Source: Candidatus Aenigmatarchaeota archaeon (GTDB lineage Archaea; Aenigmatarchaeota; Aenigmatarchaeia; QMZP01). Taken from it: DNA of 64,000 nt. The position numbers and the translations under genes were made by a program. Below are positions 28,963 through 61,357 of this stretch, in pieces. How positions within the stretch are numbered: position 1 is the stretch's first letter; every line of letters begins with the position of its first letter. Below the pieces are notes generated by a model that was given only the letters and a program-made list of their open reading frames with translations, was not told the DNA's origin and did no database searches. The stretch lies in NCBI GenBank assembly GCA_016783545.1, contig JADHWJ010000006.1, forward strand, positions 888-64,887. Direction: 5' to 3'.

Positions 28963-29040
28963 GGTTCCATCGTCTAGCTAGGCCAAGGACACAGGATTCT
29001 CATTCCTGTAACACGGGTTCAAATCCCGTTGGGACCACCA
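28963..29040 (+). tRNA. tRNA-Glu(CUC), genomically encoded CCA
   Basis: GGTTCCA TC GTCT AGCTAGGCCAA GGAC A CAGGA TTCTCAT TCCTG TAAC ACGGG TTCAAAT CCCGT TGGGACC A CCA. Confidence 0.85.
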
Positions 29041-44473: not shown

Positions 44474-45639
44474 TAGTTTAATACAACGCTTAGTTCTTCT
44501 GGTCCAATGTCAAATTCTTCCAGGAATTCCCTCTTCCTTCCTTTTATTATCATTTTCAGGTATGGTATATTCTCTCTAATGTCTTTTGGAGAACTATGCA
44601 TCTTTTTTACCATTTTTTTATAAAAGCTGTCTCTAAGCGCCCTTTTGAAACGCGTTCTTCCTAATTGGGCAATCTTTTCAGGGTATTGGTAGGGAATAAA
44701 CCCTCTTTGTGGATTAGTTCCTACGGATACTCCTACCATAAGGTCAGACATCAACCCTTTGAATCTCCAATTCTGCTGTTTGTGCACCCTTGATCTGAAT
44801 ATGTCTGCTTTTGAAAGAAGTTCATATGCACATGCGATATCTTCAGCTGTTTTGAACACTTTTGGTATGTTTGTTTCTATCCATTGAAAGACTTCATCAG
44901 GATCCTTGTCTGAATCATATATGGATTTTCTTGCAGCCTTTATGTTCTGCGAAAAAAATATGGTTGGAAGTATATCATAGATGTCTTTTAGCCTTTCTCT
45001 GAAACCAAGGCTTTCAAGGTCTTCTCCTAGGTTTGAGGCTGTCTGAAAATCTGTTATTGCAGAACGCATATCCCCATTTGAAAACCCTGCTATACTATCA
45101 ATAATTTCATCCTTTATTTTCAAATTTTCCTTTTCTATTATCTCCCTTAGTTTTTTTGATATTGATGCTGATCTTATCTTTTGAAATTTCACATGTTTGC
45201 AAGATCTTTTCAGACCAGAAAGCTTTGAGCTATATGGATCATTTGCAATCAAAATAATCGGAAAACTGGACCCCTTTATTATTTTGAGTATGGCCGAACC
45301 AGCTCCCCTGTCAGAACGTCCTGATATGCCATCAACTTCATCTATAAGTATTATCTTTCCTTTATGGAATAATGTTGTCTGTCTTGATGCATCTGAAAGC
45401 TGTAATTCTATCTCTTTCTTTGTTCTTTTGTCAGAGGCATTCAGCTGGACAAGCTGTAGATTGTTTTCCGTTGTATATGTCTCTGCAAAAAGGGTTTTTC
45501 CAATGCCGGGTGGACCTGATATAAGAAGGGCTTTTCCTTTTTTCCATTCGTTTAGAAATTGCAGGGCTTCAGATACGCATTTTTCCTGCCCCACTATTCC
45601 TGCTGTTGTTTCTGGCCTATGCCTATCTACCCAGAGCAT
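44470..45639 (-). CDS. rfcL: replication factor C large subunit
   Basis: Contains LWVDRHRP, ALLISGPPGIGKT (Walker A) and ILIDEVDGI (the DEVD box typical of the large subunit). Confidence 0.8.
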   Translation of the reverse strand: MLWVDRHRPETTAGIVGQEKCVSEALQFLNEWKKGKALLISGPPGIGKTLFAETYTTENNLQLVQLNASDKRTKKEIELQLSDASRQTTLFHKGKIILIDEVDGISGRSDRGAGSAILKIIKGSSFPIILIANDPYSSKLSGLKRSCKHVKFQKIRSASISKKLREIIEKENLKIKDEIIDSIAGFSNGDMRSAITDFQTASNLGEDLESLGFRERLKDIYDILPTIFFSQNIKAARKSIYDSDKDPDEVFQWIETNIPKVFKTAEDIACAYELLSKADIFRSRVHKQQNWRFKGLMSDLMVGVSVGTNPQRGFIPYQYPEKIAQLGRTRFKRALRDSFYKKMVKKMHSSPKDIRENIPYLKMIIKGRKREFLEEFDIGPEELSVVLNY

Positions 45640-45660
45640 AAATAGAATTAGAATGAAAAT

Positions 45661-46368
45661 TTATATAGTGTCTTTTATCTTCCAACTGCATTCATCAAAA
45701 AACCCGCATTTTCTGCATTTGTTTGGATTATTGTGATGCACTGGTTCTACTTCTTTGAAATACATGGATTCGAAAAGTTTAAGGTTCTGTAAGAGAAAGT
45801 CCTTTAAGCCTTCATCATACTCTTTTACATACTCATTGATTTTTTTCCCATTCTGATCCCTTTGCACTACTTTGAGAAATATTCTATTATATTTTAACAT
45901 ATGAGAATAGTTTCTTTGGAATCCTTCGCAATAGGCAGCAAGCTGTATTATTTTATCACTGAAAGGCACAAACCTATCTGTTTTGGCAAAGCTCTGTTCA
46001 ATAATGCTTAGAGGTTTAGTGGTAATCTTATCATCTATTATACAGATGTCTCCTGATTTTCTTATCACCTTATCTGTTCTTCCAACATAAAATATCCTTA
46101 AGTCGTTAGAAAACCTAGAAATATTCACTGTTATTCCCTCTCTGGTAAAATCCAGATCAAAAGTTGGGTCTTGAAGCTGGGCTTCTGTGGCCATCTCCCT
46201 TTGAATTAAGCGGTCTTCTTCTTCGAGAATTCGATGTATGAGCTTCCCCTTTTGAGCTGAGGGGCTAATTTGCTTTCTAAGACCTAAATGGAGCTTATTG
46301 AGTAGGCCAAACTGGCAAAACCCCATAAAGCTCGCAAAATCCGATATATTTACTTTGAGGGTTTTCAT
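45661..46368 (-). CDS. Cas4/RecB-like PD-(D/E)xK nuclease with Cys cluster (no CRISPR-Cas context)
   Basis: An N-terminal Cys (FMGFCQFG), GRTDKV...IIDDKIT, QLAAYCEGF (QxxxY) and the C-terminal CRKCGFFDEC (CxxCx5C). Confidence 0.6.
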   Translation of the reverse strand: MKTLKVNISDFASFMGFCQFGLLNKLHLGLRKQISPSAQKGKLIHRILEEEDRLIQREMATEAQLQDPTFDLDFTREGITVNISRFSNDLRIFYVGRTDKVIRKSGDICIIDDKITTKPLSIIEQSFAKTDRFVPFSDKIIQLAAYCEGFQRNYSHMLKYNRIFLKVVQRDQNGKKINEYVKEYDEGLKDFLLQNLKLFESMYFKEVEPVHHNNPNKCRKCGFFDECSWKIKDTI

Positions 46369-46404: not shown

Positions 46405-47403
46405 TTATATTCTTTGTCTCTTCTTTGCCGCAATGATCAATATTATTACAATAACAAGTACTGAAAAAAGCGCAAGTGTTGTTGTTGTTCCAAGACCAAA
46501 GAACGCTCCTATTGGCGCACCTAGAATCTTTTCAATCTCTTTTTCAAGTGTTGATTTCTCTGATATAGGGGTTGTTTCTTCTAGCTTAGGAAGCTCTGAC
46601 TCTGATTCAGTCTCTTCTTCTGAAGAAAGCGCAGCTCCTGCTCCACCACTTGCTGCTGCTCCGCTTCCTGTACTCCCAGCTGCACTGCTATCGTCTGTGC
46701 TTGGACTTGGGTTTGTAACTGACGCAGAATCGGAAAGAGATATGTCAGAAGGTCCTGTAGCAGCTAAAGAAAGTGAACAATCAGAACTACCCATTGTAAT
46801 TGTCCAAGAACGAGAGAGCTCGCTGTTATGTGCAAGGGATACAGACTTAGAGGCACTTTCACCTGATTTCAACTCACAATTGGAAGGTGTAAGTGTTAAT
46901 GTTGCATCAAAGTCCCCACCAGATAATATATTAGCTGTGACAATGAATTCAGAGCTTGTTGCAACAGAACTTGATGAAGAGGAAAGTGTAAGGGTTTTTA
47001 TAACAATTGCATTTATTTTCGCAGAACTTACCTCTTCTGTATGTGTTGTTCCATCTATATCTATATCAGAAAATTTATGGTTGTTTCCTGGCGTAATTGT
47101 CCTTATACCTTCAAATGTTGCGGTTGTGGTTCCGCCTGCACTGATAGTAGATGAGAAACCTGAACCACTATAGGTATTTGATTCAGCCCAATTACCAGAC
47201 ACATCGAGCACAATTTCATTAGTAGTTACCGAAGAAGATGGATCATTGTTTAGTATAACTGCCTGACAATAGAACTGTTCGTTATTTTCTATTGTCAATG
47301 TGGTCTCTCCTTTACATTTAAAATCTTGCACAACCAGAGCCGCTTCTACACCAGGAACTATCAGAATTGCCATCAAAACTGAAATTAATATTAGTTTTTT
47401 CAT
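46405..47403 (-). CDS. surface protein with signal peptide, Ser/Thr-rich stalk and C-terminal TM anchor (the ORF is open to 47448)
   Basis: MKKLILISVLMAILIVPGVEA...SSAAGSTGSGAAASGG...LALFSVLVIVIILIIAAKKRQRI. The ATG at 47403 lies 2 nt after the stop of the giant gene. Confidence 0.7.
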   Translation of the reverse strand: MKKLILISVLMAILIVPGVEAALVVQDFKCKGETTLTIENNEQFYCQAVILNNDPSSSVTTNEIVLDVSGNWAESNTYSGSGFSSTISAGGTTTATFEGIRTITPGNNHKFSDIDIDGTTHTEEVSSAKINAIVIKTLTLSSSSSSVATSSEFIVTANILSGGDFDATLTLTPSNCELKSGESASKSVSLAHNSELSRSWTITMGSSDCSLSLAATGPSDISLSDSASVTNPSPSTDDSSAAGSTGSGAAASGGAGAALSSEEETESESELPKLEETTPISEKSTLEKEIEKILGAPIGAFFGLGTTTTLALFSVLVIVIILIIAAKKRQRI

Positions 47404-47405
47404 AC

Positions 47406-50400
47406 CTATCCTGTTATATTTATTATTATATTCCTTATACCAGACCATGATGAGTTTGCATCTGAAGTTACAGCCTTAACCTTCCAAAAATATGTTGCAT
47501 CTGAAAGGGCTGATGAAGTATAGTTAAGTGTTGAAAGTGAATGGTTCTGTTGTGTTATGTTTCCTACTTCAAATCCAGTTGAACTGGATATTAATATTGC
47601 ATATGTTATTGTATCATTGTCTGAGTCTGTTGAAGCAGTCCAATTAAAAGATGTTGTATTATCCGATGTTGTGCTTCCATTTGTTGGCTGAGTCAAATTT
47701 GGAGCAGTTGGTGGGCTATTTAGTACTGTTAGCGCACTGGAATTGCTCCAAGAAGAGTTTCCATTATCATTTCCAAATGACACTGAACATGTCCAATTTT
47801 CCCCTTTACTTGTATTACCTGATAGCAATCTATTTATTGTTAATGTATTATTTGGGGCAGTTCTTGAACCAGAATAGTTCAATGCCCCGTTCTTGTACCA
47901 TCTATAGTAGGCTGTTAGTAATGAATTTTCATTATTTACGCCTATTGTATAACACACTAAATTATCTGTTGTGTAGTTATTTGATGAAGTTGCGTTGATT
48001 ATTATATAAGAAACCGATGGTGTGGTAGTAGCGTTAACTATAAACGCGCTTATATCGGTCACATTCCATGTACCAGCTGAATTGTTTGCATACACTCTCC
48101 ACGAAATTATTGTACCGCTTGAATAATTCAATGTTTTGCTCACATTTGACCAATTATTTGTAAATGCTGTCCATGTATCATTGACCCAGCTTCCAGAAGC
48201 ATTCCAAGAGAATATGTAACCAGAAAGGTTTACATTGGTTTCCCATAGAACTGAGAACTCAGCACTTGCATTCTCTAGTGTTGTATTCACACCCGTACTA
48301 ACCCAAGCAACATACGGCTGTGCTGTCCTATTCAAAGTAATTACTGTTTCATTTGTTCCATAATTCCAATCTGAATCATAGCAATAGAATTTTATACCAT
48401 AATCTTGATTTTGTGATGTATTCAATGAAAGATTGTATGTATGCGCTGTTCCACCTGTTGATACCTGACCAGACCAGCCTGAAATCCATGAATATGTGTA
48501 GACACTTCCGTTGTAACTAGTATTGCAAGCTGCTGAAACATTACCTGAACAATACCAGCTATAATATCTATCATAGTTCACAATCATTATATCACACCTT
48601 GCATCCTCTGTCGTAGAGGCATTGAAGAATATATTATTTTCTGTTATTACCTGTGCCAATGTTGGTGTGTTTATTGAGACATTTGGTGCTACCATATCCT
48701 TTATCTTAAAGTAGCCATTTTTTATTATAGAAGAATCTGTGCCGTTTGTTATATATACTTTTACATAATAATCTCCACCTTCCCATAAACCACCAGATGG
48801 AACCAATTTTATATAACCAGCCGTGTCAATCTCATTATTACCTACTGATTCCCCTGTTGAAACATTAACAACGCTCCATGTAGCACTTGAATATGTCCTA
48901 CAGCTGTCATCCCAGCACCCATCTGGGCTTTTTGAAAAAAGAACATTTGTGACATTGACCGCCACATTGCCTCCAGAAAGGTCTTGTAATGAATATAGAT
49001 ATATCGTAATATTGTTTGGAAATGAGGTTGCATACTGATAATTTCCATTACTATCTACAGCATACATATATCCTCTTAATGTTGGTCTCGCATTGAAATA
49101 AACACTGCTCCAGTCATCTATTCTAGTTGAATCATTGTCATCTGTAAATTCAGTGTAAAAATAATTATACCCTTCTTCCCAGCCGTCTAGAGGAGCTTCT
49201 ACAACAACAGCTGAAGTGCCGTTTATCAAACAGCTTGAAGAAGTTCTTGAATTGCAGCCATTCACACTGAAATTATAATAGATATTTGAAGGCCATGACG
49301 ATCTATATACAGATGTAAGATTACCGGTTTCAGGTTGACTGCTTATTGGATGACTTAGTGTTGCATTGAAAGTTAGATTACCTGACAGACCAATAGTATA
49401 TGGTGAAGTTCTTGAGAGACTTATTGTAAACGGAACTGCTCTGAAACTTATCCAACCATCCTTGGTTTCATTTGTATCAATATCTTTAATTGTCACTGTT
49501 ATTGATACCCATCCAGATTCCCATCTACCACTCGGTGGTTCTATTGTTAGATTTATAATACTGCCATTGAATATTGCTGTTCCATTGCCTAGTGTATAAT
49601 TAGTTATATCTGTTCTCAATTCGCCTGCATAATTCCATGTTCTTTTGATTATGCTATCTATACTATAATTCCCTTCCTGGATTGTATATGGCCATGTCCA
49701 TCCAGGCTCGTATATTGTCAATTCCACTGTTAAGTTGTTATCAGTTGCTATGGTATATGGATTTGCAGTGGCCTGAATCCTAAACGGCTCCACATTGAAC
49801 CAAAGCCAGCCTGTCACTTTTTCGCTTTCATTGTTTATCATAATAATTTCGCCATTGTAAGATCCCCCTGGCCAGGTTCCATTGTTATAGGTAACATTCA
49901 ACATTGAACGACCTGTTACATTCAGATCATTAGATCCAACTATACTGATGTTAATATCTTCTGGATAATTATAATCTATCTGTTGCCAGGTATTGGAATT
50001 CCATCTGCGAAGCACCATATCTGAAATAGTTGTATTTACAAAATCCACTGTTGAATAATAAGAATAATAATATTTTCTGTTCTTTGTTGTTGTTACATTG
50101 AAATAAACAGGACCCCTTCCTCTTGTATTATATTCGTAGGTTCCGTTTTCATTCATGGGTTGTGTGTCTATATAGAACGCTAATGCACTAAACCAGCCCC
50201 ATCCTGTCTCTGTTCCATTTAAATCCAAAACAACCTGATAATATCCAGAATCCCATCTACCAGATACTGGTGTTATATTGATTATGTAGTTATCATCACC
50301 TGTGGATGCAGACCAGATATCTCTGTTTGACTGATTTACTGTAATTGTTGTAGCAGTGTAATTTGCTGCTGGTACCTCTTTTGGAGGCCATGTGGTATAA

Positions 50401-53400
50401 AATTCCAGTTTCTTTATACTTATATCAACGTTCCCACCAAGCGAACTTCCATAAGTACCCCAGGCATCACCAGCATTCATTATCTTTACATACAGGCTTA
50501 CATTTTCTCTTGTATTGAACTGGTATTTGTATTGATATGTACCGCTAGAAAGTTCAACTGGGTTTGCGTATGCATACCAATTTCTTATCTCAAACCATAG
50601 CTCCCCATAATCACTTTCTCCAGAAGAGCTATCAGTTCCCTTTATAATAGCAGAATAATAACCTGGTTTCCATGTCCCGTTTGGTGCTCTTGAAGCACTT
50701 AGTGATATTGTACCTGCTCCACTTGATATTGTTGAAGCTGACAGACCTGTTGTATTATAATTATAGGTCACTGGCTGCCACATCCATTCTCCAGGTGTTC
50801 CTCTATATTGGACACTTTCAAGCGTAACTGTTCCGTCTATACCACTTCTGCTACTCCACCAGCCACTGCCAGCAGAATACATGTATATTGTGAAATTGAT
50901 ATCACCTGTTGGTTTATTGCTCCATAAATTACTCCATCCATAAATATAGAAAGCACGTGCTTCAAATGTTCCAAATCCTTCATCACTTGTTACGCCATTG
51001 GGTCCTGTTATTTCAACAACAACCCTGTATTTTCCACCATCCCATAAATTATCATATGGTTTTATGACACACATATACCCACCCGTCTGATCAATTGGAT
51101 AGCATATGGATGCCGTGCTGTTCAGGGTTTCTGTATTCCCATTCCGCATATTTTTGACACCTTTTATTGTAATTGTTGCGTTATTAATCGCTGTTTTCGT
51201 TGTATCTGCCTGGCATGCACCACCATATCCATAATAATAACCAGCAGAACTTGTTGTTAAATTAGCTAGTGATAAACTCGATGCATCCTTGGTCTGGTGA
51301 ACCTTCATCTGAAGATATATTGTATCTGTTGTTTGGAATTGCCAATAATAATCACTTTGAGTTGTATCTGAACTTGCCTTTGCAGCAGTGCAGATTTCAT
51401 ACGGTTTTATTCTGAGTCTTGCCCATGTATTTGCAGATTTATTGTTTACAAACATCTCAACAGTGAATAGGCCGCCTGTACTTGGTGGGTCTAATATTAC
51501 CAGACTACTTGTTGAGTTCCATCCCCATTCCAGATCAGTATCTGTAAAGTTCATTAGACTCCAATTTGACTGATATGTATAATTTTTCTCAGTCCCATCC
51601 TGATATTTTATAGAAACAATGTCAATATCAGTAACATTCACATTGGATGTCTTGTTCTTTGCGGTTACCTTTATGTATGCAAATTCTGACATTGAAAATA
51701 TATCTCTTTTGTTTTCATTGACGTCTGTTGATAGTGCAGAAGCCCTTATTGTTGTAACAGTTAATAGTTTCTCTACTGACTGTGTATCATCGTTATTAGC
51801 AAGCGTAACAGAAAGTGTATAAGAGCTCTGTATACTAGGCATGGTTAAATTAAATGTGTATGTCCCTGTACTAGAATTATAAAATGCTGAACTATTTGTC
51901 ATCTGAGCACCGAAATTATTTTTAAGAGTAATAGTGAAATTGTTATTGAGACCTGATATTGCGCTTCCGTTTCCTCTTTCTATAACACTTGCATCGAAAT
52001 ATACAGTAGAGTTAGCAAATGCTGTATATCCATATTCAAAACCTGAATTAGAACTTGTTTTAGATACTGATAATGTCCAATCCCTTACCTGGAAAATAGC
52101 TGTTGAATTTATTGTCTCTCCTCCAATTTTTCTCACACTCACCTTTGTCTTATATTCACCGACTGTAAGATTATTGTTTATTGTGAATGGGACTTTGTTA
52201 GAGTAACTATTATTCGAATCCAAAGAAAATCCTGTAAGTGTGCTTATCAGCGTTCCGTTTGAATTGTAAATAGAACTGGAAACAGTGTAATTACCAGAAG
52301 CTGTAGTTGAATTATAGCCTACTCTTACTTCAACATAACCTGTATCACCTTTCTTGAAAACGTTTTTTATGCTTGTTCCTGTACTATCCTTCATAAAAAC
52401 ATCAACATCAAAGGCTACCACACTAAATGTTGTGTAACCCACATAATTATTTGCCTCTAGTATGTATCTTCCTGATGTTGAAGGTGCGATTAAATTTGTA
52501 TAAACGCATAAACCATTCGCATCTGTTGTACAGCTAAATGTATTAAGAATTTCAAAATCTGAATCTCTAAGTGTTCCATTAATACTGACATTTGCAACTG
52601 GAAGATCATTATCACCAAGATATTGGATTGCTCTTGCAGTAAGTGTTATGTTAGAGCTTGGATAATAAATAGCTTTGTTTGGCTCCAATCTTATATCATC
52701 AATTGATTGATTGATTACATTAATTGTAATCACTGAATATGTTGTTGCGCTTCCGTTTGTGTAAGTGGCATTCAATGTATAATTACCAGTCGTACTTGGA
52801 GCATTAATCACTGTTGCAGAAGGGTAATAATCACTTCTTGAATAGTACTCACCATTTGAACCTGTTGTAAATGTGTAATTCGAAATAACATCATTAGAGA
52901 TATTCAATAGGCTAAGGTTTATGCTGACACTTGGCACCCCTGTCTCAGATGATGCTGTTATGTTATAAAGATACCCGTAAATTTCTATTCTTTCTCCAAG
53001 ACCAAATATAGTCTTTGAAACCATTAGCTGTAGATCATAGATAATTGCACTGATTGCTGTTGAGGTGGCATTTGTAGTGAAATTATACATACCTGTTGTA
53101 TTGCAATTGAAACTATCACAAGATGTTACATTGTAATAATATGTTGTGTTTGATGAAAGGCTGCTTAGGCTTATATTATGAGATAAAACCTGAGTGGAAT
53201 TTGTAACACTAGATGCTAGACTGGAATTTATTCCATAAGAAACAGTGGAATTTGCAATTTCGTCTGTGTCCCAGACTATATCCGCTGTTATTGTGTCTGT
53301 TGCTGCACTTACATTTTCTATAACCGGAGTTGATGTATCAACAGAAAATGATAATGTTGTATTATCAGATACATATGTGAAACTGTTATTTCCGCTTGCA

Positions 53401-53945
53401 ACAGCTGCTTCTAACAGGGCACTATAATTTCCGCTTGTTAAGTTTGCTTTTGTTAGGTTCCAGGTAATATTATATTCAAATTCAGCTCCATATACGCCTC
53501 CGTAATTGTATCCCGAACCAGCATACCCATACCCATATCCAGTTCCAAAGCTTGTGTTAACTGTATAATAACTAGTTGCATTATACCCATAACCAAATCC
53601 CCATAGAGGTCCGGATGCCCAGCCATATGGTGTTACGCCCAAAGCTGTTATATTAATTATGTTAGAACATGCTGTCATATTACTACCATCTGTTGTAAAC
53701 GTACAGGTATCTACGACTGAATTACTGGAGTTTCTTATTTTCAGTGTTATATTTTGAACAGGTAATCTCTCACCCTGATAGTTTATATCAATGTATGCTG
53801 TAAATGCAACAGTACTATCAGAAATGCCATACGAGGATCTGTCAGAATCCACGCCTAGTATAACAGCCTTTGACGGACTGGCGAAAATAATGACTGTTAT
53901 TATAACTAAAGTAAAAAATAAAGAAACTTTCCCATTCCTATCCAT
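47406..53945 (-). CDS. giant secreted surface protein (2179 aa), Asn/Ser/Thr/Tyr-rich with very many N-x-S/T sequons
   Basis: A single uninterrupted ORF. Signal-like MDRNGKVSLFFTLVIITVIIFASPSKA. Beta-rich repetitive modules and a C-terminal FN3-like segment (SFNWTASTDSDNDTITY...YFWKVKA). No C-terminal anchor. Confidence 0.85.
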   Translation of the reverse strand: MDRNGKVSLFFTLVIITVIIFASPSKAVILGVDSDRSSYGISDSTVAFTAYIDINYQGERLPVQNITLKIRNSSNSVVDTCTFTTDGSNMTACSNIINITALGVTPYGWASGPLWGFGYGYNATSYYTVNTSFGTGYGYGYAGSGYNYGGVYGAEFEYNITWNLTKANLTSGNYSALLEAAVASGNNSFTYVSDNTTLSFSVDTSTPVIENVSAATDTITADIVWDTDEIANSTVSYGINSSLASSVTNSTQVLSHNISLSSLSSNTTYYYNVTSCDSFNCNTTGMYNFTTNATSTAISAIIYDLQLMVSKTIFGLGERIEIYGYLYNITASSETGVPSVSINLSLLNISNDVISNYTFTTGSNGEYYSRSDYYPSATVINAPSTTGNYTLNATYTNGSATTYSVITINVINQSIDDIRLEPNKAIYYPSSNITLTARAIQYLGDNDLPVANVSINGTLRDSDFEILNTFSCTTDANGLCVYTNLIAPSTSGRYILEANNYVGYTTFSVVAFDVDVFMKDSTGTSIKNVFKKGDTGYVEVRVGYNSTTASGNYTVSSSIYNSNGTLISTLTGFSLDSNNSYSNKVPFTINNNLTVGEYKTKVSVRKIGGETINSTAIFQVRDWTLSVSKTSSNSGFEYGYTAFANSTVYFDASVIERGNGSAISGLNNNFTITLKNNFGAQMTNSSAFYNSSTGTYTFNLTMPSIQSSYTLSVTLANNDDTQSVEKLLTVTTIRASALSTDVNENKRDIFSMSEFAYIKVTAKNKTSNVNVTDIDIVSIKYQDGTEKNYTYQSNWSLMNFTDTDLEWGWNSTSSLVILDPPSTGGLFTVEMFVNNKSANTWARLRIKPYEICTAAKASSDTTQSDYYWQFQTTDTIYLQMKVHQTKDASSLSLANLTTSSAGYYYGYGGACQADTTKTAINNATITIKGVKNMRNGNTETLNSTASICYPIDQTGGYMCVIKPYDNLWDGGKYRVVVEITGPNGVTSDEGFGTFEARAFYIYGWSNLWSNKPTGDINFTIYMYSAGSGWWSSRSGIDGTVTLESVQYRGTPGEWMWQPVTYNYNTTGLSASTISSGAGTISLSASRAPNGTWKPGYYSAIIKGTDSSSGESDYGELWFEIRNWYAYANPVELSSGTYQYKYQFNTRENVSLYVKIMNAGDAWGTYGSSLGGNVDISIKKLEFYTTWPPKEVPAANYTATTITVNQSNRDIWSASTGDDNYIINITPVSGRWDSGYYQVVLDLNGTETGWGWFSALAFYIDTQPMNENGTYEYNTRGRGPVYFNVTTTKNRKYYYSYYSTVDFVNTTISDMVLRRWNSNTWQQIDYNYPEDINISIVGSNDLNVTGRSMLNVTYNNGTWPGGSYNGEIIMINNESEKVTGWLWFNVEPFRIQATANPYTIATDNNLTVELTIYEPGWTWPYTIQEGNYSIDSIIKRTWNYAGELRTDITNYTLGNGTAIFNGSIINLTIEPPSGRWESGWVSITVTIKDIDTNETKDGWISFRAVPFTISLSRTSPYTIGLSGNLTFNATLSHPISSQPETGNLTSVYRSSWPSNIYYNFSVNGCNSRTSSSCLINGTSAVVVEAPLDGWEEGYNYFYTEFTDDNDSTRIDDWSSVYFNARPTLRGYMYAVDSNGNYQYATSFPNNITIYLYSLQDLSGGNVAVNVTNVLFSKSPDGCWDDSCRTYSSATWSVVNVSTGESVGNNEIDTAGYIKLVPSGGLWEGGDYYVKVYITNGTDSSIIKNGYFKIKDMVAPNVSINTPTLAQVITENNIFFNASTTEDARCDIMIVNYDRYYSWYCSGNVSAACNTSYNGSVYTYSWISGWSGQVSTGGTAHTYNLSLNTSQNQDYGIKFYCYDSDWNYGTNETVITLNRTAQPYVAWVSTGVNTTLENASAEFSVLWETNVNLSGYIFSWNASGSWVNDTWTAFTNNWSNVSKTLNYSSGTIISWRVYANNSAGTWNVTDISAFIVNATTTPSVSYIIINATSSNNYTTDNLVCYTIGVNNENSLLTAYYRWYKNGALNYSGSRTAPNNTLTINRLLSGNTSKGENWTCSVSFGNDNGNSSWSNSSALTVLNSPPTAPNLTQPTNGSTTSDNTTSFNWTASTDSDNDTITYAILISSSTGFEVGNITQQNHSLSTLNYTSSALSDATYFWKVKAVTSDANSSWSGIRNIIINITG

Positions 53946-53985
53946 ATATAGTTATTCTATCTCTAAATTAATAAACACATGTAAA

Positions 53986-54378
53986 CTATTCTCTACATGT
54001 ACCTTCTCTGCATTTCCACCCTTCGCCATAAGAAGAGCATTCTACCATATCGTTTGTTAATTTTCCTGTAATGCAGTAATATTCGATTAGCGAATCATCT
54101 GATTCGCAGTAATCCACGAATTTTTTTGTTTCTCCTACAAACCCTGATTTGCTTACTTTAACTTCACCAAAAGTAAATGGGTCTCTACCGTAATCTGTTT
54201 CATCGCAATTCAGTATTTCAATATCAACTTCCCCTGTAAACTTACCTGAAGGTTTCTGGAAAGTTGTAAAGAATGAAAGAACTGATACAGAGAGTATTAC
54301 AGCAAGAACTATTATGAGTATTATACCATTATTAATTTTCTTGAAATTGTTTTTAGGAGTTTTGATTTTTAATCCCAT
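53986..54378 (-). CDS. small N-terminally anchored Cys-containing protein (paralogue 1)
   Basis: A TM helix, then PSGKFTGEVDIEILNCDETDYGRDPFTFGEV...VDYC...EYYC...EC..YGEGWKCREGTC. Confidence 0.6.
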   Translation of the reverse strand: MGLKIKTPKNNFKKINNGIILIIVLAVILSVSVLSFFTTFQKPSGKFTGEVDIEILNCDETDYGRDPFTFGEVKVSKSGFVGETKKFVDYCESDDSLIEYYCITGKLTNDMVECSSYGEGWKCREGTCRE

Positions 54379-54409
54379 GTATATATTTTAATTTTTTAGG
54401 CTTATAAAA

Positions 54410-54766
54410 TTATTTTACACAGACACCTTCTCTGCATTTCCACTCACTACCATAGAAAGAACACTCAATACCACTGGTTTTTAATTTATCGTCTTTGCAG
54501 TAATATTCAACAAGAAGGTTATCTGCCCTACAATAATCAACAAATACTCTTGTTTCTTTTATAGCAGCATCTACTGTAGTTGCTGTAACCTCACCAAAGT
54601 TATAAGGATCTCTACCATAGTCTGTTTCCTCACACGTCTCTACTGTTAAATTTAAATCACCTGTAAATTTACCTGATGGTGTCTGTACACCAATAGTTAG
54701 AAAAAGAGTTGGAATAAGTATAGCAAGAATCAATATAATTATCAAAATTCTGTTTGAAATTCTCAT
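54410..54766 (-). CDS. small N-terminally anchored Cys-containing protein (paralogue 2)
   Basis: A TM helix, then PSGKFTGDLNLTVETCEETDYGRDPYNFGEV...VDYC...EYYC...EC.FYGSEWKCREGVC. Confidence 0.6.
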   Translation of the reverse strand: MRISNRILIIILILAILIPTLFLTIGVQTPSGKFTGDLNLTVETCEETDYGRDPYNFGEVTATTVDAAIKETRVFVDYCRADNLLVEYYCKDDKLKTSGIECSFYGSEWKCREGVCVK

Positions 54767-54821
54767 ATATATTTCTTAATTTTTCAAGCTTATAAAATTA
54801 TATTAAAAAAATGTAAAGGGA

Positions 54822-57164
54822 TTATTTCACGAGCAATGCAAACCTGATTATAAGAATCACTATAATTATCAATGTAATAATTACTATTGCAGCGATCTTC
54901 CAGAAAGGCCTTTCTTCTATATCTTCTAATATAAGACCTGTTATGTTATCAAATGTTGCATCTAATGTTATGTTTGTTCCATTATCTTCTGATTCTGTTA
55001 TGTTAGGCTCTGTTACGTTAGGTTCTGGTGTGGTTATATTAGGTTCTGGTGTGGTTATATTAGGTTCTGGTGTGGTTATATTAGGTTCTGGTGTGGTTAT
55101 ATTAGGTTCTGGTGTGGTTATATTAGGTTCTGTTACAATAGGTTGCTGTTGAGCAGTTTCATCACAATCTACCAAACCCCTCTCACCACATACTCTTCCT
55201 GTATCTGAAGTAACTAGAGGACCTGTTATGTTAGATTTTACTGATACCTTGACCTTTGCAGTTGTCTGTGAACGAGCAGTATTTGCACTTAGTGTTACAA
55301 CATAATCACCTTCAAGTGTATAATATATCGGTGAAATGTAGATGTATGTTTTTTCTTCTTCATCTGGTCTCAAATGCAATGTATTTGGTCTCAAAAATAC
55401 CCATTCTGGACCATCAACACCTAAATTATATGTCTGAGCAACATCACCTGTGTTTCTTACTGTTACAGGTATTAGTGTAGCCTTTGATGTCCTTATATCC
55501 ACATTATCCTTGTCAGGTCTGATTGATGCAGAATAACAGGCATTGATTGATTTTATGCTTACTGGAGTTGATGTTGTCATTGATGTATACTGGCTTGTTG
55601 CAAAAACATCCAATCTCTTTAAACCTTCCTCATTAGCTATAGACAGGCTGAAATCAAAATTCTTAGACACGCCTGGTGCAAGTGTTATGTTTGTGAATTC
55701 TGGGTTTGTTTTTCCATCATAAACGAATCCTATGCTAAATGTATCAGATCTTGTACCAGTATTCCTCACATTAGCTGTGAAATTTACACCTGTGAATGGA
55801 CATGCTGATATGGATTCTGGATTAACTACAAGTTCACCATCGTAACAATTTTCTACTGCAAGTACAGCAGATGCTTGTTTTGTTATAGAACCATCTGTAG
55901 CTCTAACTGTTATTGTCTTTGTACCAACAAGACCTTCTGTATCTATGTTCAGATTTATAACTTCTACCTGATCTGGGTCCAAAATAACCTTATCTTTTGA
56001 TAATGTACCTAATGTAGTTGAAACCGTGAATGTATCCTGTAGAGTTCCAGTGTTTTTAACAGTAACTGAGAACTCTCCTTTCTCTTTCTTGCATATGTTA
56101 TTTTGAACAGGTGAAACCATTAATATTGCATCTTTACATTCTTTTGCCTGTATTGAAGATGATACTTTCTTTGCCATATTTGGATTTGTTGTGCTTGTAA
56201 CAGTCAATTCAAGTGTATTTGACCCTGTTTTCTGAGGTCTGGAAGTTAAAGACACGCTTCTAATTGAACCAGCTGGAACAGTTACAGAACCAACAGAACT
56301 TGCCCATGAAGGACCTGAAACAATATATGTATCTTCCTTTGAACCAGTGTTTCTAATAGTCAGTGTATGATTAAATGATCTACCAAGACATGCATCTGAT
56401 ATCTGACTTGGTGTAATCTCTGCATTAAAATTATAACATTGTTTCAAATTTAATGAAACTTTTTTTGTTGCTTCTGCATAAGAATTCCTTGAAACAGCAA
56501 ATATCTCTAAAGTATGAAGTCCTGAAAGCGTTTTTGGTGGGTTAAGCGTCATTGTAACTGTTTTTGTTGAACCTGATGATACTGTAACTGAATTTTGAGA
56601 GAAAGTCAACCCTGAAGTAATATCTGTTGACCCTAATGGACAGCAGAAATCAAATGTTTCAGTATATTTACCCAGGTTTTTGAATAAAAGTGAATATGTT
56701 ACAGGAAGCTCTGTCTCCCTACAAACATCTTTTGATGTCTCACCAGCGATTTCAAGAAGATGACAACCAAGGACCTTTACTGATATGGTCTTTGAAACAC
56801 TATGACCAGTTGACCTTGAAACAGCCCTAATTGTTGCAGTGTATGTACCAGGTTCAATTGTATATGGAACATTTATCCAGAATGTTTCAACCTCTTTTAT
56901 TTCATTTGAAGCCAATACTATCTCTGGATTTATAAAAGCTGAGTCAGAATTTGTTATCCAATCAACAGAAAGTGTAAATGTATCAGATCTTGAAAGAAGA
57001 TTTTTAACTGTTATTTTTATATCATCATCTGTAATTGTTCTATCAGGGCAGACTTCAATTGTCTGGGGTGTTATCTGCAAATCTATGTTTGAAATTGCCA
57101 GTGCAGGATTAGCTCCCACCAATACTGTAAACAGACAGATTAAAAGCAAAAGTCTCTTAAACAT
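54822..57164 (-). CDS. secreted multi-domain surface protein with C-terminal TM anchor
   Basis: Signal peptide MFKRLLLLICLFTVLVGANPALA. Repeated ~100-aa beta modules each carry a conserved Cys and a TF.(V/L)..(T/N) pattern (CARDB/DUF11-like). A NITTPEP repeat stalk precedes the TM helix IAAIVIITLIIIVILII. Confidence 0.75.
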   Translation of the reverse strand: MFKRLLLLICLFTVLVGANPALAISNIDLQITPQTIEVCPDRTITDDDIKITVKNLLSRSDTFTLSVDWITNSDSAFINPEIVLASNEIKEVETFWINVPYTIEPGTYTATIRAVSRSTGHSVSKTISVKVLGCHLLEIAGETSKDVCRETELPVTYSLLFKNLGKYTETFDFCCPLGSTDITSGLTFSQNSVTVSSGSTKTVTMTLNPPKTLSGLHTLEIFAVSRNSYAEATKKVSLNLKQCYNFNAEITPSQISDACLGRSFNHTLTIRNTGSKEDTYIVSGPSWASSVGSVTVPAGSIRSVSLTSRPQKTGSNTLELTVTSTTNPNMAKKVSSSIQAKECKDAILMVSPVQNNICKKEKGEFSVTVKNTGTLQDTFTVSTTLGTLSKDKVILDPDQVEVINLNIDTEGLVGTKTITVRATDGSITKQASAVLAVENCYDGELVVNPESISACPFTGVNFTANVRNTGTRSDTFSIGFVYDGKTNPEFTNITLAPGVSKNFDFSLSIANEEGLKRLDVFATSQYTSMTTSTPVSIKSINACYSASIRPDKDNVDIRTSKATLIPVTVRNTGDVAQTYNLGVDGPEWVFLRPNTLHLRPDEEEKTYIYISPIYYTLEGDYVVTLSANTARSQTTAKVKVSVKSNITGPLVTSDTGRVCGERGLVDCDETAQQQPIVTEPNITTPEPNITTPEPNITTPEPNITTPEPNITTPEPNVTEPNITESEDNGTNITLDATFDNITGLILEDIEERPFWKIAAIVIITLIIIVILIIRFALLVK
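55021..55125. repeat. five perfect 21-nt tandem repeats (encode NITTPEP x5)
   Basis: The unit ggttctggtgtggttatatta is repeated head to tail, with degenerate 15-nt relatives on both sides. Confidence 0.9.
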
Positions 57165-57235
57165 GAGAAATTATTAATAGTAAGTTTTTTAAGGGTTTTC
57201 GTCAAATAACAGAAAAGTATTTAAGCTTTTCGCTT

Positions 57236-57290
57236 AATTGTTTCAAATTGTTTCACTGGAAAAAATAATAAAAATCTCACTGAAACAATT
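57236..57290. promoter_or_regulatory. direct and inverted AATTGTTTCA repeats between the dockerin ORF and the 780-aa gene
   Basis: AATTGTTTCA lies at 57236-45 and 57246-55. The inverted partner cacTGAAACAATT lies at 57278-90. Confidence 0.4.
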
Positions 57291-57313
57291 AAAAAAATAA
57301 AGGAAATGTTTAG

Positions 57314-58009
57314 TTAACATTTCCTTCCATAATTGAGGCCTACTGCAGCAAGGTCAAAAATGTTTATTTTACCATCGCCTTCTGCATCTCCTCTGATTGT
57401 TGGTGGGGTATGTATATCAGCAGGTATGCATCCACCTGTAACTGCTTGACCGAAGCAATAACCTACCTTTGCAAGGTCAAATACATTGATTTTGCAGTCA
57501 TTTTGTATATCCCCTCTCAACCAGACACTAATATTCCATGTTTCTGTGTCTGTTGCCCCATGTTGATCTGTTACCCTAAGGGTAACTGTGTGCTCTCCTA
57601 TGTCATTGACAGAGGCCGCGTATAACCAAGACTGGGCTGTTGATTTCTCAACACCATTGAGTTTCCATACGTATTTTAGGCCACTAGTCTCGCCTATATC
57701 AGGGTCGTGTGACGTGTGGTTAAACCTTATTGAATAACCCTCCCTAAATTTAACAGTTGTAGAACTTGGTATTGTTGTATCTATTATTGGTGCTCTGTTT
57801 ACATTATTTACTGTTATTGTTATTTTCTTGCTTGCTCTAGCACTGCCATCGCTTACATTGAATGTTATATCATAGGAGCCTGCCTGATTGTATGTTGGCT
57901 TCCATGAGAACCTATTGCCCACTAAAGTTGCGCCAGTAGGCATTGGCGTTGCGCTATATGTCAAAGCGTCGTTGTCAATATCGCTGCCAATCACATTGAA
58001 TTCAAGCAA
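57314..58009 (-). CDS. dockerin-containing surface-protein fragment (TTG start as called; the frame is open upstream to 58306 without a start or signal peptide)
   Basis: Ig/cadherin-like DIDNDALTYS, a PKD-like domain, and a C-terminal duplicated Ca-binding dockerin repeat (GDIQNDCKINVFDLAKVG and GDAEGDGKINIFDLAAVG). Confidence 0.6.
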   Translation of the reverse strand: MLEFNVIGSDIDNDALTYSATPMPTGATLVGNRFSWKPTYNQAGSYDITFNVSDGSARASKKITITVNNVNRAPIIDTTIPSSTTVKFREGYSIRFNHTSHDPDIGETSGLKYVWKLNGVEKSTAQSWLYAASVNDIGEHTVTLRVTDQHGATDTETWNISVWLRGDIQNDCKINVFDLAKVGYCFGQAVTGGCIPADIHTPPTIRGDAEGDGKINIFDLAAVGLNYGRKC

Positions 58010-58318
58010 TGTATTTTCATTAACAGTTTTATCACTTACTGATATAACAGGTGCTGTATTTCTTATTGTTTTTACAGATGAATTCTTTGCAATACCATAG
58101 TCTTGTGTGTCGTATGGTTTTATTTGACACTTTATATTGTTTCCTTTTACAAATTTACTTGAAGCTAGTGTTTTTCCTGTTTGTCCGGATATAGCAACAT
58201 TGTTTTTATACCAGACATAATTGTTTGTAACCCTATCATTGTCAGCGTCTGCTGTTGAATGATTGTTGCATGTAAGAGTGTCGTCTGTATATGCAACAGC
58301 CGGATATTATTACACGGG

Positions 58319-59932
58319 TTAATAATCCTTTTCTCTTATTGGTGGAATAGGTGTAAACTCTTTTGCTTCCATTCCAATCATTATTCTTGCTGCCAAAATA
58401 ATTATTATAAAAATTATTATAATGTAAGAGACCAGAAGTTCAAAGCTCATACCAAAAGAGAATCTTGAATGGCAATCTGTGCATTCCCTTTCCTCTGCTT
58501 TTAACACGAAAAGCGGTATATAGCTTTCAAAACTCTTTGCTTCCTTATAGGCTATTACATTAACATGTATTGTATATTTCCCGTATTCCCTTGATTTAAC
58601 ATAAGCATAGACTGTTTTTGTTTCATCAACATTTACCTCAGTAGGGTAATCTATCCATCCATTAGGGACTCCTGACATTCTTATGTAAAACTTTTGCGGA
58701 ATCTTTGATGTTATTTCAATTCTCATAACATCACCATCGTACATATTTGAGTCTATTTCAGATGGATATATCATTACAGCTGTCTCTTTTGCCCAAGGTT
58801 TTGGTTTTGGCTCTGGTTCAGGGTCAGGCATGGTAAAATTAATAACATCCAATATTTCTGTCGGGAATTCAACTGGTTTTCTTGATTTTATGTTCAATGT
58901 TGTGAAGTCACCTTCTGAGCACATACCCCTTGAAGCTATAGCAGAAATTTTAAGGTTATGAAGACCCTCTGCACTCAATGAATAGATAAATGTCAAAACA
59001 GTGCCTGACTTTCCATCTAATGAGAAGGAACGTATGTCTTCTTTCTTACCATCAACATAAAAATATACATCAACATCTTCTCTTTCACTCACCATATTCT
59101 CCAATGTAACAACTATTCTATTATCTTCTCCCTTAGTAACATATGTATCATAATCCACTCTCTTTATATCAATTCCACAACGCTCATCATCTTCGTCGTC
59201 TTCATCATCCGCATCTCTTCCTGACAGGCAAAGTCCTGCCTCACAACCATTCTCGCATTCTTTAATGCTTACCCAGTTAGTTGAACCGCAGCCGTCCTGA
59301 AACTCTCTCTGAAGTATGTTGCCTTCGCACCTGTAATTCATTAAAAAGCCTTTGAATATTTTACAATCTGGGCTTTTCCTGCAATCAACCGGACAGTTAT
59401 CAGGGGTTTCACCGCAATTACGAACACCATCACCACATGCATCACATAAGTAACAATAATCACCATCGCCTTTTGCTATGGATTCCCATCTTCCACCAAG
59501 GCACTGCAAAAATGATTGTGTTGAAGAATCGCATCTTGTTTCACCCTCTCTTCCAAGTGGGTTTTTACAAGAATATCCTTCTAGTATGTAATGTATCATC
59601 ACCTCTGAATCCCATGCACCACAGCTGGATTCTACTGCTATACCAACATCATATCTTTCTCTGCTAAATGGATATTCCATTGAAACTCTTTTAACTTCCC
59701 CAGAATCCAGTGTTATATTACCAGAACCAACTTCAACATCGTCAACATAGATTGTATAATCAATTATCTGACCATCATGTGTGCCTGTATTCTTTATATT
59801 CGCTGATATTTCACTATCCCAGACTGTTAGTCCATAAACATCTATTTCACAGCCTACATGATCAGCAAGAACGCCTGGACTAAGCAAAATCGTCAAAACT
59901 ATTAGAGTAAATACGGCAAATGTCTTTCTCAT
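58319..59932 (-). CDS. secreted Cys-rich protein with C-terminal TM anchor, unknown function
   Basis: Signal peptide MRKTFAVFTLIVLTILLSPGVLA. A Cys-rich core (CDACGDGVRNCGETPDNCPVDC) and an acidic DADDEDDEDDE stretch. TM helix LLVSYIIIIFIIIILAA. Confidence 0.7.
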   Translation of the reverse strand: MRKTFAVFTLIVLTILLSPGVLADHVGCEIDVYGLTVWDSEISANIKNTGTHDGQIIDYTIYVDDVEVGSGNITLDSGEVKRVSMEYPFSRERYDVGIAVESSCGAWDSEVMIHYILEGYSCKNPLGREGETRCDSSTQSFLQCLGGRWESIAKGDGDYCYLCDACGDGVRNCGETPDNCPVDCRKSPDCKIFKGFLMNYRCEGNILQREFQDGCGSTNWVSIKECENGCEAGLCLSGRDADDEDDEDDERCGIDIKRVDYDTYVTKGEDNRIVVTLENMVSEREDVDVYFYVDGKKEDIRSFSLDGKSGTVLTFIYSLSAEGLHNLKISAIASRGMCSEGDFTTLNIKSRKPVEFPTEILDVINFTMPDPEPEPKPKPWAKETAVMIYPSEIDSNMYDGDVMRIEITSKIPQKFYIRMSGVPNGWIDYPTEVNVDETKTVYAYVKSREYGKYTIHVNVIAYKEAKSFESYIPLFVLKAEERECTDCHSRFSFGMSFELLVSYIIIIFIIIILAARIMIGMEAKEFTPIPPIREKDY

Positions 59933-59965: not shown

Positions 59966-61357
59966 TTAACATACTTTATTCACGTATTCCTTCAGGAAAA
60001 GAGCAAATTCCTTGTCTTTTTTTGCCAAAGAAATGATCTGTTTTTCATTCAGGAACTGATATCTTTTCCTTATGGATTTTGCTATATAGCTTGGAACACC
60101 CCTCTCTCTCAGCTTCTTGAATGAGCCCTTTAGTGTCTCTCTTAGGAGCTGTTCGGGCTTTATAAACTCTCTTTTTATCTCAGAAAAACACTTATTCTCT
60201 TCAATCCAGACCTTTCCTATTTTCTTGTATTTCTTTGTGAACTCATCTGATCTATCCTTTACATCTATTGGTGGACCTTCTATTTTCTTCACTTTAGGAA
60301 GCTCTTCTCCATTTAATTCCAACAAAAGCATAGAATACCCATTTCCATATACATCATTCCCAAATACCTGAAATTCCTCATCTTCTAAGACCTCTTTTAG
60401 TCTTTTGCCAAATTTTCTAAGCTGTGGGAATAGTATATCGGGTATCACTTCTGGGCTTTTGAACTTTATAGCAAGAAGAACTGTTTCCCTTTTCTTGATA
60501 GAATTCTCCAGCTGCTTTAGATTAACACTCTTTTCTTCTGAAAAGAATTTTCCAGACGGTTTCTTTAAAAAAGCTTGGCAGGCTTCCACAAATCTTGCAA
60601 AGTTTTCTGGGGAGAGCGCTGCAGCAACATTCCTGTTTTTGTCAACAGGATCTATAACTATCAGTTGATTATTTTTGAATTTTCTCTTAAGATCTTCTGG
60701 AAGCTCTTTATGGTATTTTTCTATATCGATATAGACGTCTGTTTTCCACTTAGAAGCTGATTTCAACAGGTTTTTCAAACTCCCAAAATTTGCAACAAGT
60801 ATCTCACATAAATAGCCTGAGAAGCCCTGAACCTTTGTATCAGAACCGTATACGCCCATAGACTTTGTGAATTGTTTTAGAAGTCGCACATCACCAGAAA
60901 GTCTGAGAGGGAAATTCTTCTGTATCCATCTATTATGAAATGGTGTCCTATCAACAGCTGATTTTATTTTCTCAGCTGATTTTACACTATAACAGGGCAC
61001 AATATCAACATCATATCCTAGTATAACAGCCCTTGTATATGGATGCTCTGCATAAGCTATAACATAACTACCTTTCATTCTCCTTGTGATTGTTTTTCCT
61101 ATTAAAAGCCCTTGTTTTTCCAGCTCTTCTCTTGGAGCATTTTCAGGGAATAGTATAAACAGATCAAAATCTTTTTTATGAGGAAGCCAGGTATCTCGTA
61201 TTATGCTACCTGAAAGTGTATGTCCTAGACCTTTGGGTCTTATGATCTCTTCTGTTGTTTTCAATATTTTCTTAACATCCTCTTCGAGCTCTTTTCTTTC
61301 CTCTTCAGAAGGTGTTATTTTCTTCAGTGCCTTTTCCAGAATAGAATCCATTGTCAT
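59966..61357 (-). CDS. cca: archaeal class I CCA-adding enzyme (tRNA nucleotidyltransferase)
   Basis: Contains GSIIRDTWLPHKKDFDLFILF and RTPFHNRW. Length is about 460 aa, typical of archaeal CCA enzymes. Confidence 0.85.
   Translation of the reverse strand: MTMDSILEKALKKITPSEEERKELEEDVKKILKTTEEIIRPKGLGHTLSGSIIRDTWLPHKKDFDLFILFPENAPREELEKQGLLIGKTITRRMKGSYVIAYAEHPYTRAVILGYDVDIVPCYSVKSAEKIKSAVDRTPFHNRWIQKNFPLRLSGDVRLLKQFTKSMGVYGSDTKVQGFSGYLCEILVANFGSLKNLLKSASKWKTDVYIDIEKYHKELPEDLKRKFKNNQLIVIDPVDKNRNVAAALSPENFARFVEACQAFLKKPSGKFFSEEKSVNLKQLENSIKKRETVLLAIKFKSPEVIPDILFPQLRKFGKRLKEVLEDEEFQVFGNDVYGNGYSMLLLELNGEELPKVKKIEGPPIDVKDRSDEFTKKYKKIGKVWIEENKCFSEIKREFIKPEQLLRETLKGSFKKLRERGVPSYIAKSIRKRYQFLNEKQIISLAKKDKEFALFLKEYVNKVC

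Follow-up and report, generated by a model that had tools for sequence, protein, structure and literature searches.

A conserved gene pair for a giant sequon-rich secreted protein and its candidate membrane anchor in DPANN archaea

A 13.5-kb region on the minus strand (positions 46405-59932) was analysed in a stretch of 64,000 nucleotides, here called the window, from a Candidatus Aenigmarchaeota metagenome-assembled genome (contig JADHWJ010000006.1). A first-pass annotation, made from the letters alone, had described this region as a dedicated cell-surface or attachment system of eight genes around a giant protein of 2179 amino acids. On balance, we favour a smaller functional unit than the 13.5-kb cluster, namely a two-gene operon formed by the gene of the giant and the gene of a membrane protein of 332 amino acids (g332, the anchor), whose products may well build an S-layer-type (surface-layer-type) envelope assembly. 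The pair appears to be an undescribed, widely conserved envelope gene pair of DPANN archaea, analogous to SlaA/SlaB of Sulfolobales; its roles in lattice formation and host binding are predictions. No published description of the pair turned up in literature searches. The other five genes of the region are, as far as comparison can tell, genes of unrelated surface proteins that neighbour the pair by happenstance in this genome; one of the five is a pseudogene.

The giant and anchor genes

The candidate features of the pair are the following (window positions).

47406..53945, minus strand: gene of the giant, a predicted secreted glycoprotein of 2179 amino acids (ISS36_02945); open reading frame (ORF), first gene of the conserved pair
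53865..53945, minus strand: signal peptide of the giant, residues about 1-27, predicted cleavage site; hydrophobic segment at residues 3-33
53046..53864, minus strand: lineage-specific N-terminal extension of the giant, residues about 28-300; column conservation
48306..53045, minus strand: family-conserved core of the giant, residues about 301-1880; tblastn span, conservation profile and AlphaFold2 model
47409..48305, minus strand: lineage-specific C-terminal extension of the giant, residues about 1881-2179; column conservation
53968..53975, minus strand: TATA-like box TTTATTAA, centre about 27 nucleotides upstream of the giant ATG; consensus match
47401..47412, minus strand: coupling junction AGGATAGGT ATG, made of the giant TAG, 2 nucleotides and the anchor ATG
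46405..47403, minus strand: membrane-anchor gene g332, 332 amino acids (ISS36_02940); second gene of the conserved pair
46699..47340, minus strand: anchor ectodomain, residues about 22-235, two beta-sandwiches; AlphaFold2 model and alignment
46489..46698, minus strand: anchor stalk, residues about 236-305, rich in Ser, Thr, Gly and Glu; low pLDDT (predicted local distance difference test) and variable alignment
46408..46488, minus strand: C-terminal transmembrane helix of the anchor and basic tail KKRQRI; hydrophobic segment at residues 298-330, model helix at 307-331

Loci containing homologues of the giant were compared systematically. There are 88 of them, of which 80 come from 80 different species assemblies (one genome per species was scanned), and thus one copy of the giant was detected per genome. 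By their labels, the species loci belong to Aenigmatarchaeota, Woesearchaeota, Pacearchaeota and Nanoarchaeota, and a few to Micrarchaeota and Altiarchaeota. The tblastn matches in the 80 species genomes cover residues ~300-1875 of the query. The N-terminal domain of the anchor was found by tblastn in 75 of the 88 loci, each time on the same strand and immediately after the giant. With a hidden Markov model it was found in this position in 77 of the 78 loci that have downstream sequence. Conservation of gene order in relatives, proposed earlier as a check on the whole cluster, is thus observed for the giant and the anchor but not for the remaining genes.

The same arrangement is seen in six independent metagenome contigs, where the giant is followed on the same strand, at a distance of -20 to +14 nucleotides between annotated gene ends, by a protein of 339-528 amino acids lacking Pfam domains. 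These six proteins are homologous over their first ~235 residues (31-67% identity), and each carries a signal peptide and, at the C-terminus, a transmembrane segment. The other neighbours of the pair in these contigs vary by lineage and are housekeeping genes, those of RNA polymerase, ribosomal proteins, tRNA synthetases and histidine biosynthesis. The window pair, which served as the query, has the structure that defines the family: a core of ~1580 residues, followed by a same-strand gene that opens with a four-cysteine domain of two beta-sandwiches.

The ATG of the anchor (47403) lies 2 nucleotides past the stop codon of the giant (TAG, 47408-47406), exactly as first noted. It is preceded by a purine-rich stretch AGGATAGG that resembles a Shine-Dalgarno box and overlaps this stop codon. 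In most of the 75 loci the distance between the two genes is estimated at no more than ~60 nucleotides. The anchor gene is thus predicted to be translationally coupled to the gene of the giant. Moreover, pairwise identities of giant cores and anchor domains are correlated (r = 0.66, 2414 pairs). Together, the adjacency, the coupling and the co-divergence make it likely that the downstream protein tethers the giant, as had been suggested. Both proteins seem to be under strong purifying selection, since their identities to the closest relative (55% for the giant core, 48-50% for the anchor) are on a par with that of a neighbouring cytoplasmic nuclease (50%). This PD-(D/E)XK nuclease with a C-terminal cluster of cysteines is encoded downstream of the pair both in the window (45661-46368, minus strand) and in the locus of the closest relative (L001, 18167-18826). 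Gene order shared locally within Aenigmarchaeota, rather than a functional link, is the probable reason for its position.

The description of the giant as an exported, anchorless and sequon-rich protein was borne out. A hydrophobicity scan detects a single transmembrane-like segment, at the N-terminus, and there are 126 N-x-S/T sequons compared with 54.6 +/- 5.7 in composition-preserving shuffles (z ~12.5). The sequon load is a feature of the whole family, with a median of 86 sequons per giant, or 49 per 1000 amino acids; from composition alone about half as many would be expected (median z 9.2 against shuffles). Other ORFs have 3.9 sequons per 1000 residues. Heavy N-glycosylation of the giant is therefore predicted from the sequons. 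No transmembrane segment beyond the signal peptide is present in 67 of 70 giants. The other three (L021, L082 and L057) have a hydrophobic segment close to their own C-terminus, and each is followed by an anchor-domain match, about 280 nucleotides downstream in L021.

About 25 near-full-length homologues of the giant were identified (35-55% identity), none of them with a name. Intact homologues of at least ~1400 residues occur in 69 other loci of the family, and thus the open frame of 6.5 kb in DNA with 36% G+C is not a product of chance or of assembly. In an alignment of 70 giants, column conservation is ~0.42-0.61 in the core, 0.02-0.07 in the N-terminal extension and 0.12-0.17 at residues 1901-2179. 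In most homologues the core begins directly after the signal peptide, the median number of residues preceding it being 35. The N-terminal extension of the window giant contains a Gly/Tyr-rich stretch and an FN3-like domain, with a weak Pur_ac_phosph_N/FN3 match at residues 217-291. The terminal modules of the giants differ between lineages, and PKD, FN3 and PQQ beta-propeller domains are found among them.

Residues 850-1760 were modelled with AlphaFold2 as an all-beta structure with ~7 beta-sandwich modules (mean pLDDT 82.4). The best Foldseek matches of the model are arrays of macroglobulin (MG) domains from alpha-2-macroglobulin and complement proteins, and ciliary Ig-repeat proteins, all with a low TM-score (template modelling score). 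The core is thus predicted to be a chain of beta-sandwich domains of macroglobulin-like or Ig-like type.

A match to the TATA consensus was observed upstream of most giants, commonly as TTTATATA or TTTATAAA at 30-55 nucleotides from the ATG (first 25 of 45 aligned regions). The TATA-like box of the window may be the pair's own promoter, this being a consensus-level assignment in AT-rich DNA.

The anchor has a signal peptide, 27.7% serine and threonine, a C-terminal transmembrane segment and no sequons. An exhaustive phmmer search of 1.84 billion representatives yielded relatives in 78 clusters, nearly all matching from their own N-terminus. A word-indexed search gave only three proteins, owing to low-complexity words. 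The 59 aligned members are 311-677 amino acids long; a signal peptide is present in 58 of them and a C-terminal transmembrane segment in 51. Four cysteines (C30, C46, C176 and C209) and two tryptophans are invariant in this alignment. The AlphaFold2 model (mean pLDDT 84.2) places the two beta-sandwiches at residues 23-133 and 135-230; the block-mean pLDDT is 94-98 over residues ~21-230. The stalk is predicted to be disordered, with pLDDT below 50 at residues 276-305 and no secondary structure at 240-305. Its length and sequence vary across the family, where the alignment runs into poly-Gly/Ser and then becomes unalignable. The ectodomain is proposed to be the module that binds the giant. The number of sequons in the anchor family is low (median 2) and below the compositional expectation. 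Three homologues (P0069, P0073 and P0082) have no C-terminal transmembrane segment and end in a conserved motif GWNL(I/L)SLPL, and they carry 10-15 sequons. Such an ending might attach or sort these proteins in another way. One more homologue (P0074) has no transmembrane segment, 15 sequons and a different C-terminus.

The neighbouring genes and the rest of the window

Seven surface-protein ORFs lie on the minus strand of the region, where the first-pass annotation had placed them. It spoke of eight consecutive genes, and its own list also had seven. The five genes upstream of the pair and the flanking genes are the following.

53986..54378, minus strand: g130, small N-anchored protein with 6 Cys; adjoins the pair, not a member of it
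54410..54766, minus strand: g118, small N-anchored protein with 6 Cys; together with g780 in a separate, lineage-restricted module
54822..57164, minus strand: g780, surface protein of 780 amino acids with signal peptide, Ig-like domains, stalk and transmembrane segment
57314..58306, minus strand: probable 5'-truncated remnant with PKD and Big_9 domains and a dockerin-like C-terminus; domain scan, no start codon
58319..59932, minus strand: g537, Cys-rich anchored surface protein with a signal-like N-terminus, a C-terminal transmembrane segment and CARDB
59966-61357, same-strand run: CCA-adding enzyme; domain scan
44470-46368, same-strand run: PD-(D/E)XK nuclease and RFC; domain scan

The same-strand run extends on both sides into these cytoplasmic housekeeping genes, as seen in the domain scan of the window ORFs, and thus the common orientation does not mark the boundary of a system. 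RFC, the CCA-adding enzyme, which is of archaeal type, and a topoisomerase VI elsewhere in the window agree with an archaeal origin of the DNA. The common strand and the exported features of the cluster are real, but neither the number of eight nor the strand as a delimiter stands, and one member has no signal peptide.

The individual features of g537, g780, g118 and g130 (signal and anchor segments, cysteines, the NITTPEP-type stalk, the paralogy) agree with the earlier description. The two small proteins, g118 and g130, are paralogues (49-54% identity), each with an N-terminal hydrophobic segment and six cysteines. A single homologue of g118 was detected among 5.8 billion proteins (P0058, 52% identity). 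g780 has a signal peptide, several matches to Ig-like, CARDB and fn3-like domains, five PNITTPE repeats and a C-terminal transmembrane segment. It also has a weak match to the NCBIfam family NF033506, 'PACE-CTERM-PROT, putative S-layer protein' (27 bits, the cut-off being 110). No relatives of g780 were found in the metagenomes of JGI, and a metagenome scan for the small cysteine proteins gave none either. The giant, the anchor, g118, g130 and g537 belong to no NCBIfam family. g537 contains 21 cysteines, a signal-like N-terminal segment, a CARDB domain and a C-terminal transmembrane segment.

The frame at 57314-58306 is open for 330 codons, contains no ATG, GTG or TTG before the TTG at 58009 and encodes no signal peptide. 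It is a probable 5'-truncated remnant, that is, a pseudogene. It matches Big_9 (E 9e-18) and PKD (E 4e-9). Of the earlier term "dockerin-bearing fragment", the two loops DIQNDCKINVFD and DAEGDGKINIFD do fit the dockerin calcium-loop pattern by eye, but the gene is truncated at the 5' end and the Dockerin_1 (PF00404) match is under the Pfam threshold (E 0.063, 13.9 bits versus 22.9). A cohesin, suggested as the partner to look for, had no match within the window, either in the seven cluster proteins (E <= 0.1) or in 30 other ORFs scanned at 1e-3 or 1e-4. Residues 6-131 of the remnant match residues 1991-2129 of the giant, at window positions ~47559-47975 (31% identity, E 0.003). This common module of ~130 residues, with a motif YxWYKNG...C, suggests domain exchange between the C-terminal extension of the giant and the other surface-protein gene.

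No homologues of g537, the remnant, g780, g118 or g130 were found by tblastn within +/-6 kb of the giant in the 88 loci. The locus of the single g118 homologue (L089) contains, in this order, a g780-like gene, one small cysteine gene, a nitroreductase gene and RFC, with neither giant nor anchor between them. Its RFC is 61% identical to that of the window, and the C-terminus of g780 is conserved there. From these two observations, the 13.5-kb region is best described as two or more independent modules and a pseudogene lying side by side.

Some features elsewhere in the window were recorded. An ORF of 826 amino acids (8197-10677, minus strand) encodes a signal peptide and an extended acidic repeat, (GDTG/GDTS)n; its other parts are acidic and very rich in cysteine. 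It has no Pfam match and no sequons and is a secreted orphan distant from the cluster. In the gene of topoisomerase VI B (467-5305, plus strand, 1612 amino acids), intein-splicing, LAGLIDADG and homing-endonuclease domains were recognised, and the splicing model and the LAGLIDADG model both match it in two stretches. An intein is also suggested in the gene of a type IA topoisomerase (12502-16062, minus strand, 1186 amino acids) by its LAGLIDADG domain. Four tRNA genes (Asn-GTT, Thr-GGT, Thr-CGT and Glu-CTC) at 28072-29040 (plus strand) account for a local peak of G+C. A tyrosine recombinase gene (Phage_integrase, 39475-40569, plus strand) and a Fic-domain gene (35141-36076, plus strand) occur in otherwise housekeeping surroundings.

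Candidate function of the pair

In the proposed model, the giant is exported via its signal peptide and has no membrane anchor. It would be a heavily N-glycosylated long chain of beta-sandwiches, with a conserved core and lineage-specific modules at both ends. The coupled gene encodes a type-I membrane protein with two disulfide-stabilised beta-sandwiches, a flexible stalk and a single transmembrane helix, which ends on the cytoplasmic side in a short basic tail. These three steps rest on sequence and comparative evidence; we infer three more. The ectodomain of the anchor would bind the core of the giant, and the stalk would set the distance of the giant above the membrane. The two proteins together would form the main glycoprotein coat, so that the plan of SlaA (canopy) and SlaB (stalk and anchor) would be realised by unrelated families. 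Finally, the variable modules at the two ends of the giant would be the likely outward, lineage-specific faces and the site of any recognition of host or substrate. Binding, spacing and coat are suggested by the combination of an anchorless glycoprotein candidate, a type-I partner, near-obligate adjacency, coupling and co-divergence. Lattice formation, abundance and actual glycosylation are likewise predictions. One possibility is that the pair is the S-layer of Aenigmatarchaeota, Woesearchaeota and Pacearchaeota: a two-component lattice of an origin independent of SlaA/SlaB, with a conserved glycoprotein scaffold of ~13 domains and exchangeable end modules that determine the specificity for host or substrate. 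This extension is tentative, and we regard it as slightly on the doubtful side.

Several points weigh against an S-layer function. The family is known from sequences and predicted models alone. The proteins have no detectable sequence similarity to solved S-layer proteins, and none of the latter is among the best 50 Foldseek matches. The anchor has no long trimeric coiled coil of the kind that defines the SlaB stalk, its sole helix in the AlphaFold2 model being the transmembrane one (307-331). The giant is 1.5 times as long as SlaA. The conservation of its core exceeds what is usual for S-layer proteins. Three of the 70 giants have a C-terminal transmembrane-like segment of their own. One informative locus (L072, 10866-11330) has no adjacent anchor but a 120-residue ORF after the giant, and the hidden Markov model found no anchor-domain match anywhere in this locus. 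With strict detection methods, only ~80 species genomes and 78 anchor clusters were found, and thus universality within the phyla is not established. It could also be that g780, which has the layout of a single-chain S-layer protein, is the lattice protein instead. Published expression data say little about the pair: 'S-layer protein genes' are among the top-expressed ones in a Woesearchaeota metatranscriptome paper, which does not specify the genes, and the DPANN proteins detected in a Pacearchaeota metaproteome are too few to bear on it.

The giant might alternatively be a long adhesin fibre that sits on the anchor and holds a host cell, and not a coat of the whole cell. The lineages belong to DPANN, whose cultivated members are ectosymbionts (PMC11329633, bioRxiv 10.1101/2023.10.27.564410). 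Chains of Ig-like domains, as predicted here, are common in adhesins, and the end modules (PKD, FN3, PQQ beta-propeller) vary by lineage. However, host-recognition proteins are usually multi-copy and fast-evolving, whereas there is one giant per genome, its 1580-residue core is 35-55% identical across phylum-level lineages with necessarily different hosts, and this core evolves no faster than neighbouring cytoplasmic proteins. We regard pure host attachment as unlikely; it does not exclude a coat, since a coat protein can bear adhesive tips. It is more improbable still that the two genes are inherited together without forming a complex, the anchor being an independent membrane protein, for instance a helper of assembly or export, and the giant being released or attached otherwise. 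Such independence would agree with the locus lacking an adjacent anchor, the C-terminal hydrophobic segments of three giants and the few anchor homologues that end in a GWNLISLPL-type motif instead of a transmembrane segment; and binding of the two proteins is itself a prediction. It is difficult to reconcile with the near-invariant adjacency, the translational coupling and the co-divergence, and Pfam, NCBIfam and transmembrane scans revealed no other recognisable means of retaining the giant.

It is very improbable that all seven or eight genes work together with the giant in one system for the cell surface or for attachment. The run of seven consecutive exported or anchored products on one strand, with short intergenic gaps, is indeed not expected by chance, because only ~8 of 37 other window ORFs have an N-terminal hydrophobic segment. 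But tblastn with the cluster proteins in the 88 loci retrieved the anchor only, the closest relative of the giant sits behind a gene of an AMP-binding enzyme, and the L089 locus keeps the g780-like and small cysteine genes without giant or anchor. Furthermore, the dockerin gene appears to be a truncated remnant with no cohesin match in the window ORFs scanned, and separate TATA-like boxes precede the giant and g130. A seven-gene system was rejected on the tblastn result and the L089 gene order. Least credible is a protease trap or defence protein of the alpha-2-macroglobulin type. This function is hinted at by a weak Pfam MG2 match (E 2.6e-6, 28.1 bits versus a cut-off of 32.8) and by the best Foldseek matches of the giant, which include A2ML1, complement C5, CD109, TEP1 and Salmonella alpha-2-macroglobulin (E ~1e-16). 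However, the TM-scores are ~0.2 and ciliary and nuclear-pore Ig-repeat proteins score equally, and thus the match is to strings of MG or Ig-like domains in general. A helical thioester domain is absent from the 911 modelled residues, which are all-beta, and a CGEQ-type thioester motif is present in none of the 70 giants; on the latter ground this candidate was rejected.

The lineages that carry the pair are uncultivated, and every database copy is labelled hypothetical. A conserved single-copy pair at the surface offers targets for antibodies, for cell sorting and immuno-electron microscopy, and templates for electron cryotomography maps. The two genes can also serve as markers in expression work, and host specificity can be sought at a defined place, namely the variable ends of the giant. 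As to method, neighbouring surface genes should be taken for one system only when there is comparative evidence.

Comparison with known surface proteins

The C-terminus of the remnant resembles cellulosomal type-I dockerins in having two repeats of 12 residues that look like calcium loops, with a helix-like segment after each. Unlike them, it is truncated, has no signal peptide, scores below threshold and has no cohesin in the window ORFs scanned. The giant shares tandem macroglobulin-like beta-sandwiches with alpha-2-macroglobulin and complement proteins, but has no thioester motif or domain, occurs in another context and comes with a dedicated membrane anchor.

S-layer glycoproteins of the csg type carry a glycosylatable stalk and a C-terminal anchor. 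It is g780, and not the giant, that resembles them, with its signal peptide, ~6 Ig-like domains, Thr/Pro-rich stalk and C-terminal anchor. No PGF-CTERM motif is visible in the C-terminus of g780. Haloferax volcanii csg itself has 827 residues and six Ig-like domains (PMC10903991).

According to a study of Nanobdella, the S-layer protein has been determined for no DPANN archaeon and there are candidates only (bioRxiv 10.1101/2023.10.27.564410). The same study proposed that MJ1_0160 (no anchor) and MJ1_0707 (C-terminal transmembrane segment) of Nanobdella aerobiophila are SlaA-like and SlaB-like, respectively. Compared by description only, these two proteins and two further proposed S-layer candidates, NEQ300 of Nanoarchaeum equitans and Micr_00292 of Ca. 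Micrarchaeum harzensis, share Ig-like folds and many sequons with our candidates. They differ in size, Micr_00292 (101 kDa) and MJ1_0160 (extracellular part of more than 950 amino acids) both being well under 2179 amino acids. Judged by the locus tags, MJ1_0160 and MJ1_0707 are not adjacent. Micr_00292 matches the Pfam domain S_layer_N (PF05123), whereas the giant does not; indeed, S_layer_N, S_layer_C (PF05124) and DUF1608 have no match in any of the seven proteins at E <= 0.1.

It had been stated earlier that none of the proteins resembles a characterised S-layer protein. This is true of the sequences, but the gene and domain layout of SlaA/SlaB was overlooked. A profile of 26 giants retrieved no chain from the PDB at E <= 1, the SlaA and SlaB entries being presumed present in the PDB copy searched, and a profile of the anchor retrieved only low-complexity Gly/Ser linkers. 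The slaA and slaB genes are reportedly adjacent. SlaA has 1424 amino acids, no anchor and 31 sequons, and SlaB has 475 amino acids, N-terminal beta-sandwiches and a C-terminal transmembrane segment (PMC10903991).

The differences are considerable. The giant is longer than SlaA, by the factor given above, and has four times as many sequons. SlaB has three beta-sandwiches and the anchor two; a 132-residue trimeric coiled coil in SlaB corresponds to a disordered Ser/Thr/Gly stalk in the anchor; SlaB has 14 sequons and the anchor is sequon-poor. The lattice is known for SlaA/SlaB and predicted here. On the other hand, the giant, like SlaA, is large, sequon-rich, anchorless and mostly beta, with a signal peptide, and domain D4 of SlaA resembles the MG domain of complement C5 (PMC10903991), just as the core of the giant resembles MG arrays. 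The anchor, like SlaB, combines N-terminal beta-sandwiches, as modelled, with a C-terminal transmembrane segment, the latter in 51 of 59 members. The pair thus appears to be analogous, and not detectably homologous, to SlaA/SlaB. If it forms a lattice, it would represent a second, independent canopy-plus-stalk design of the S-layer beside that of Sulfolobales.

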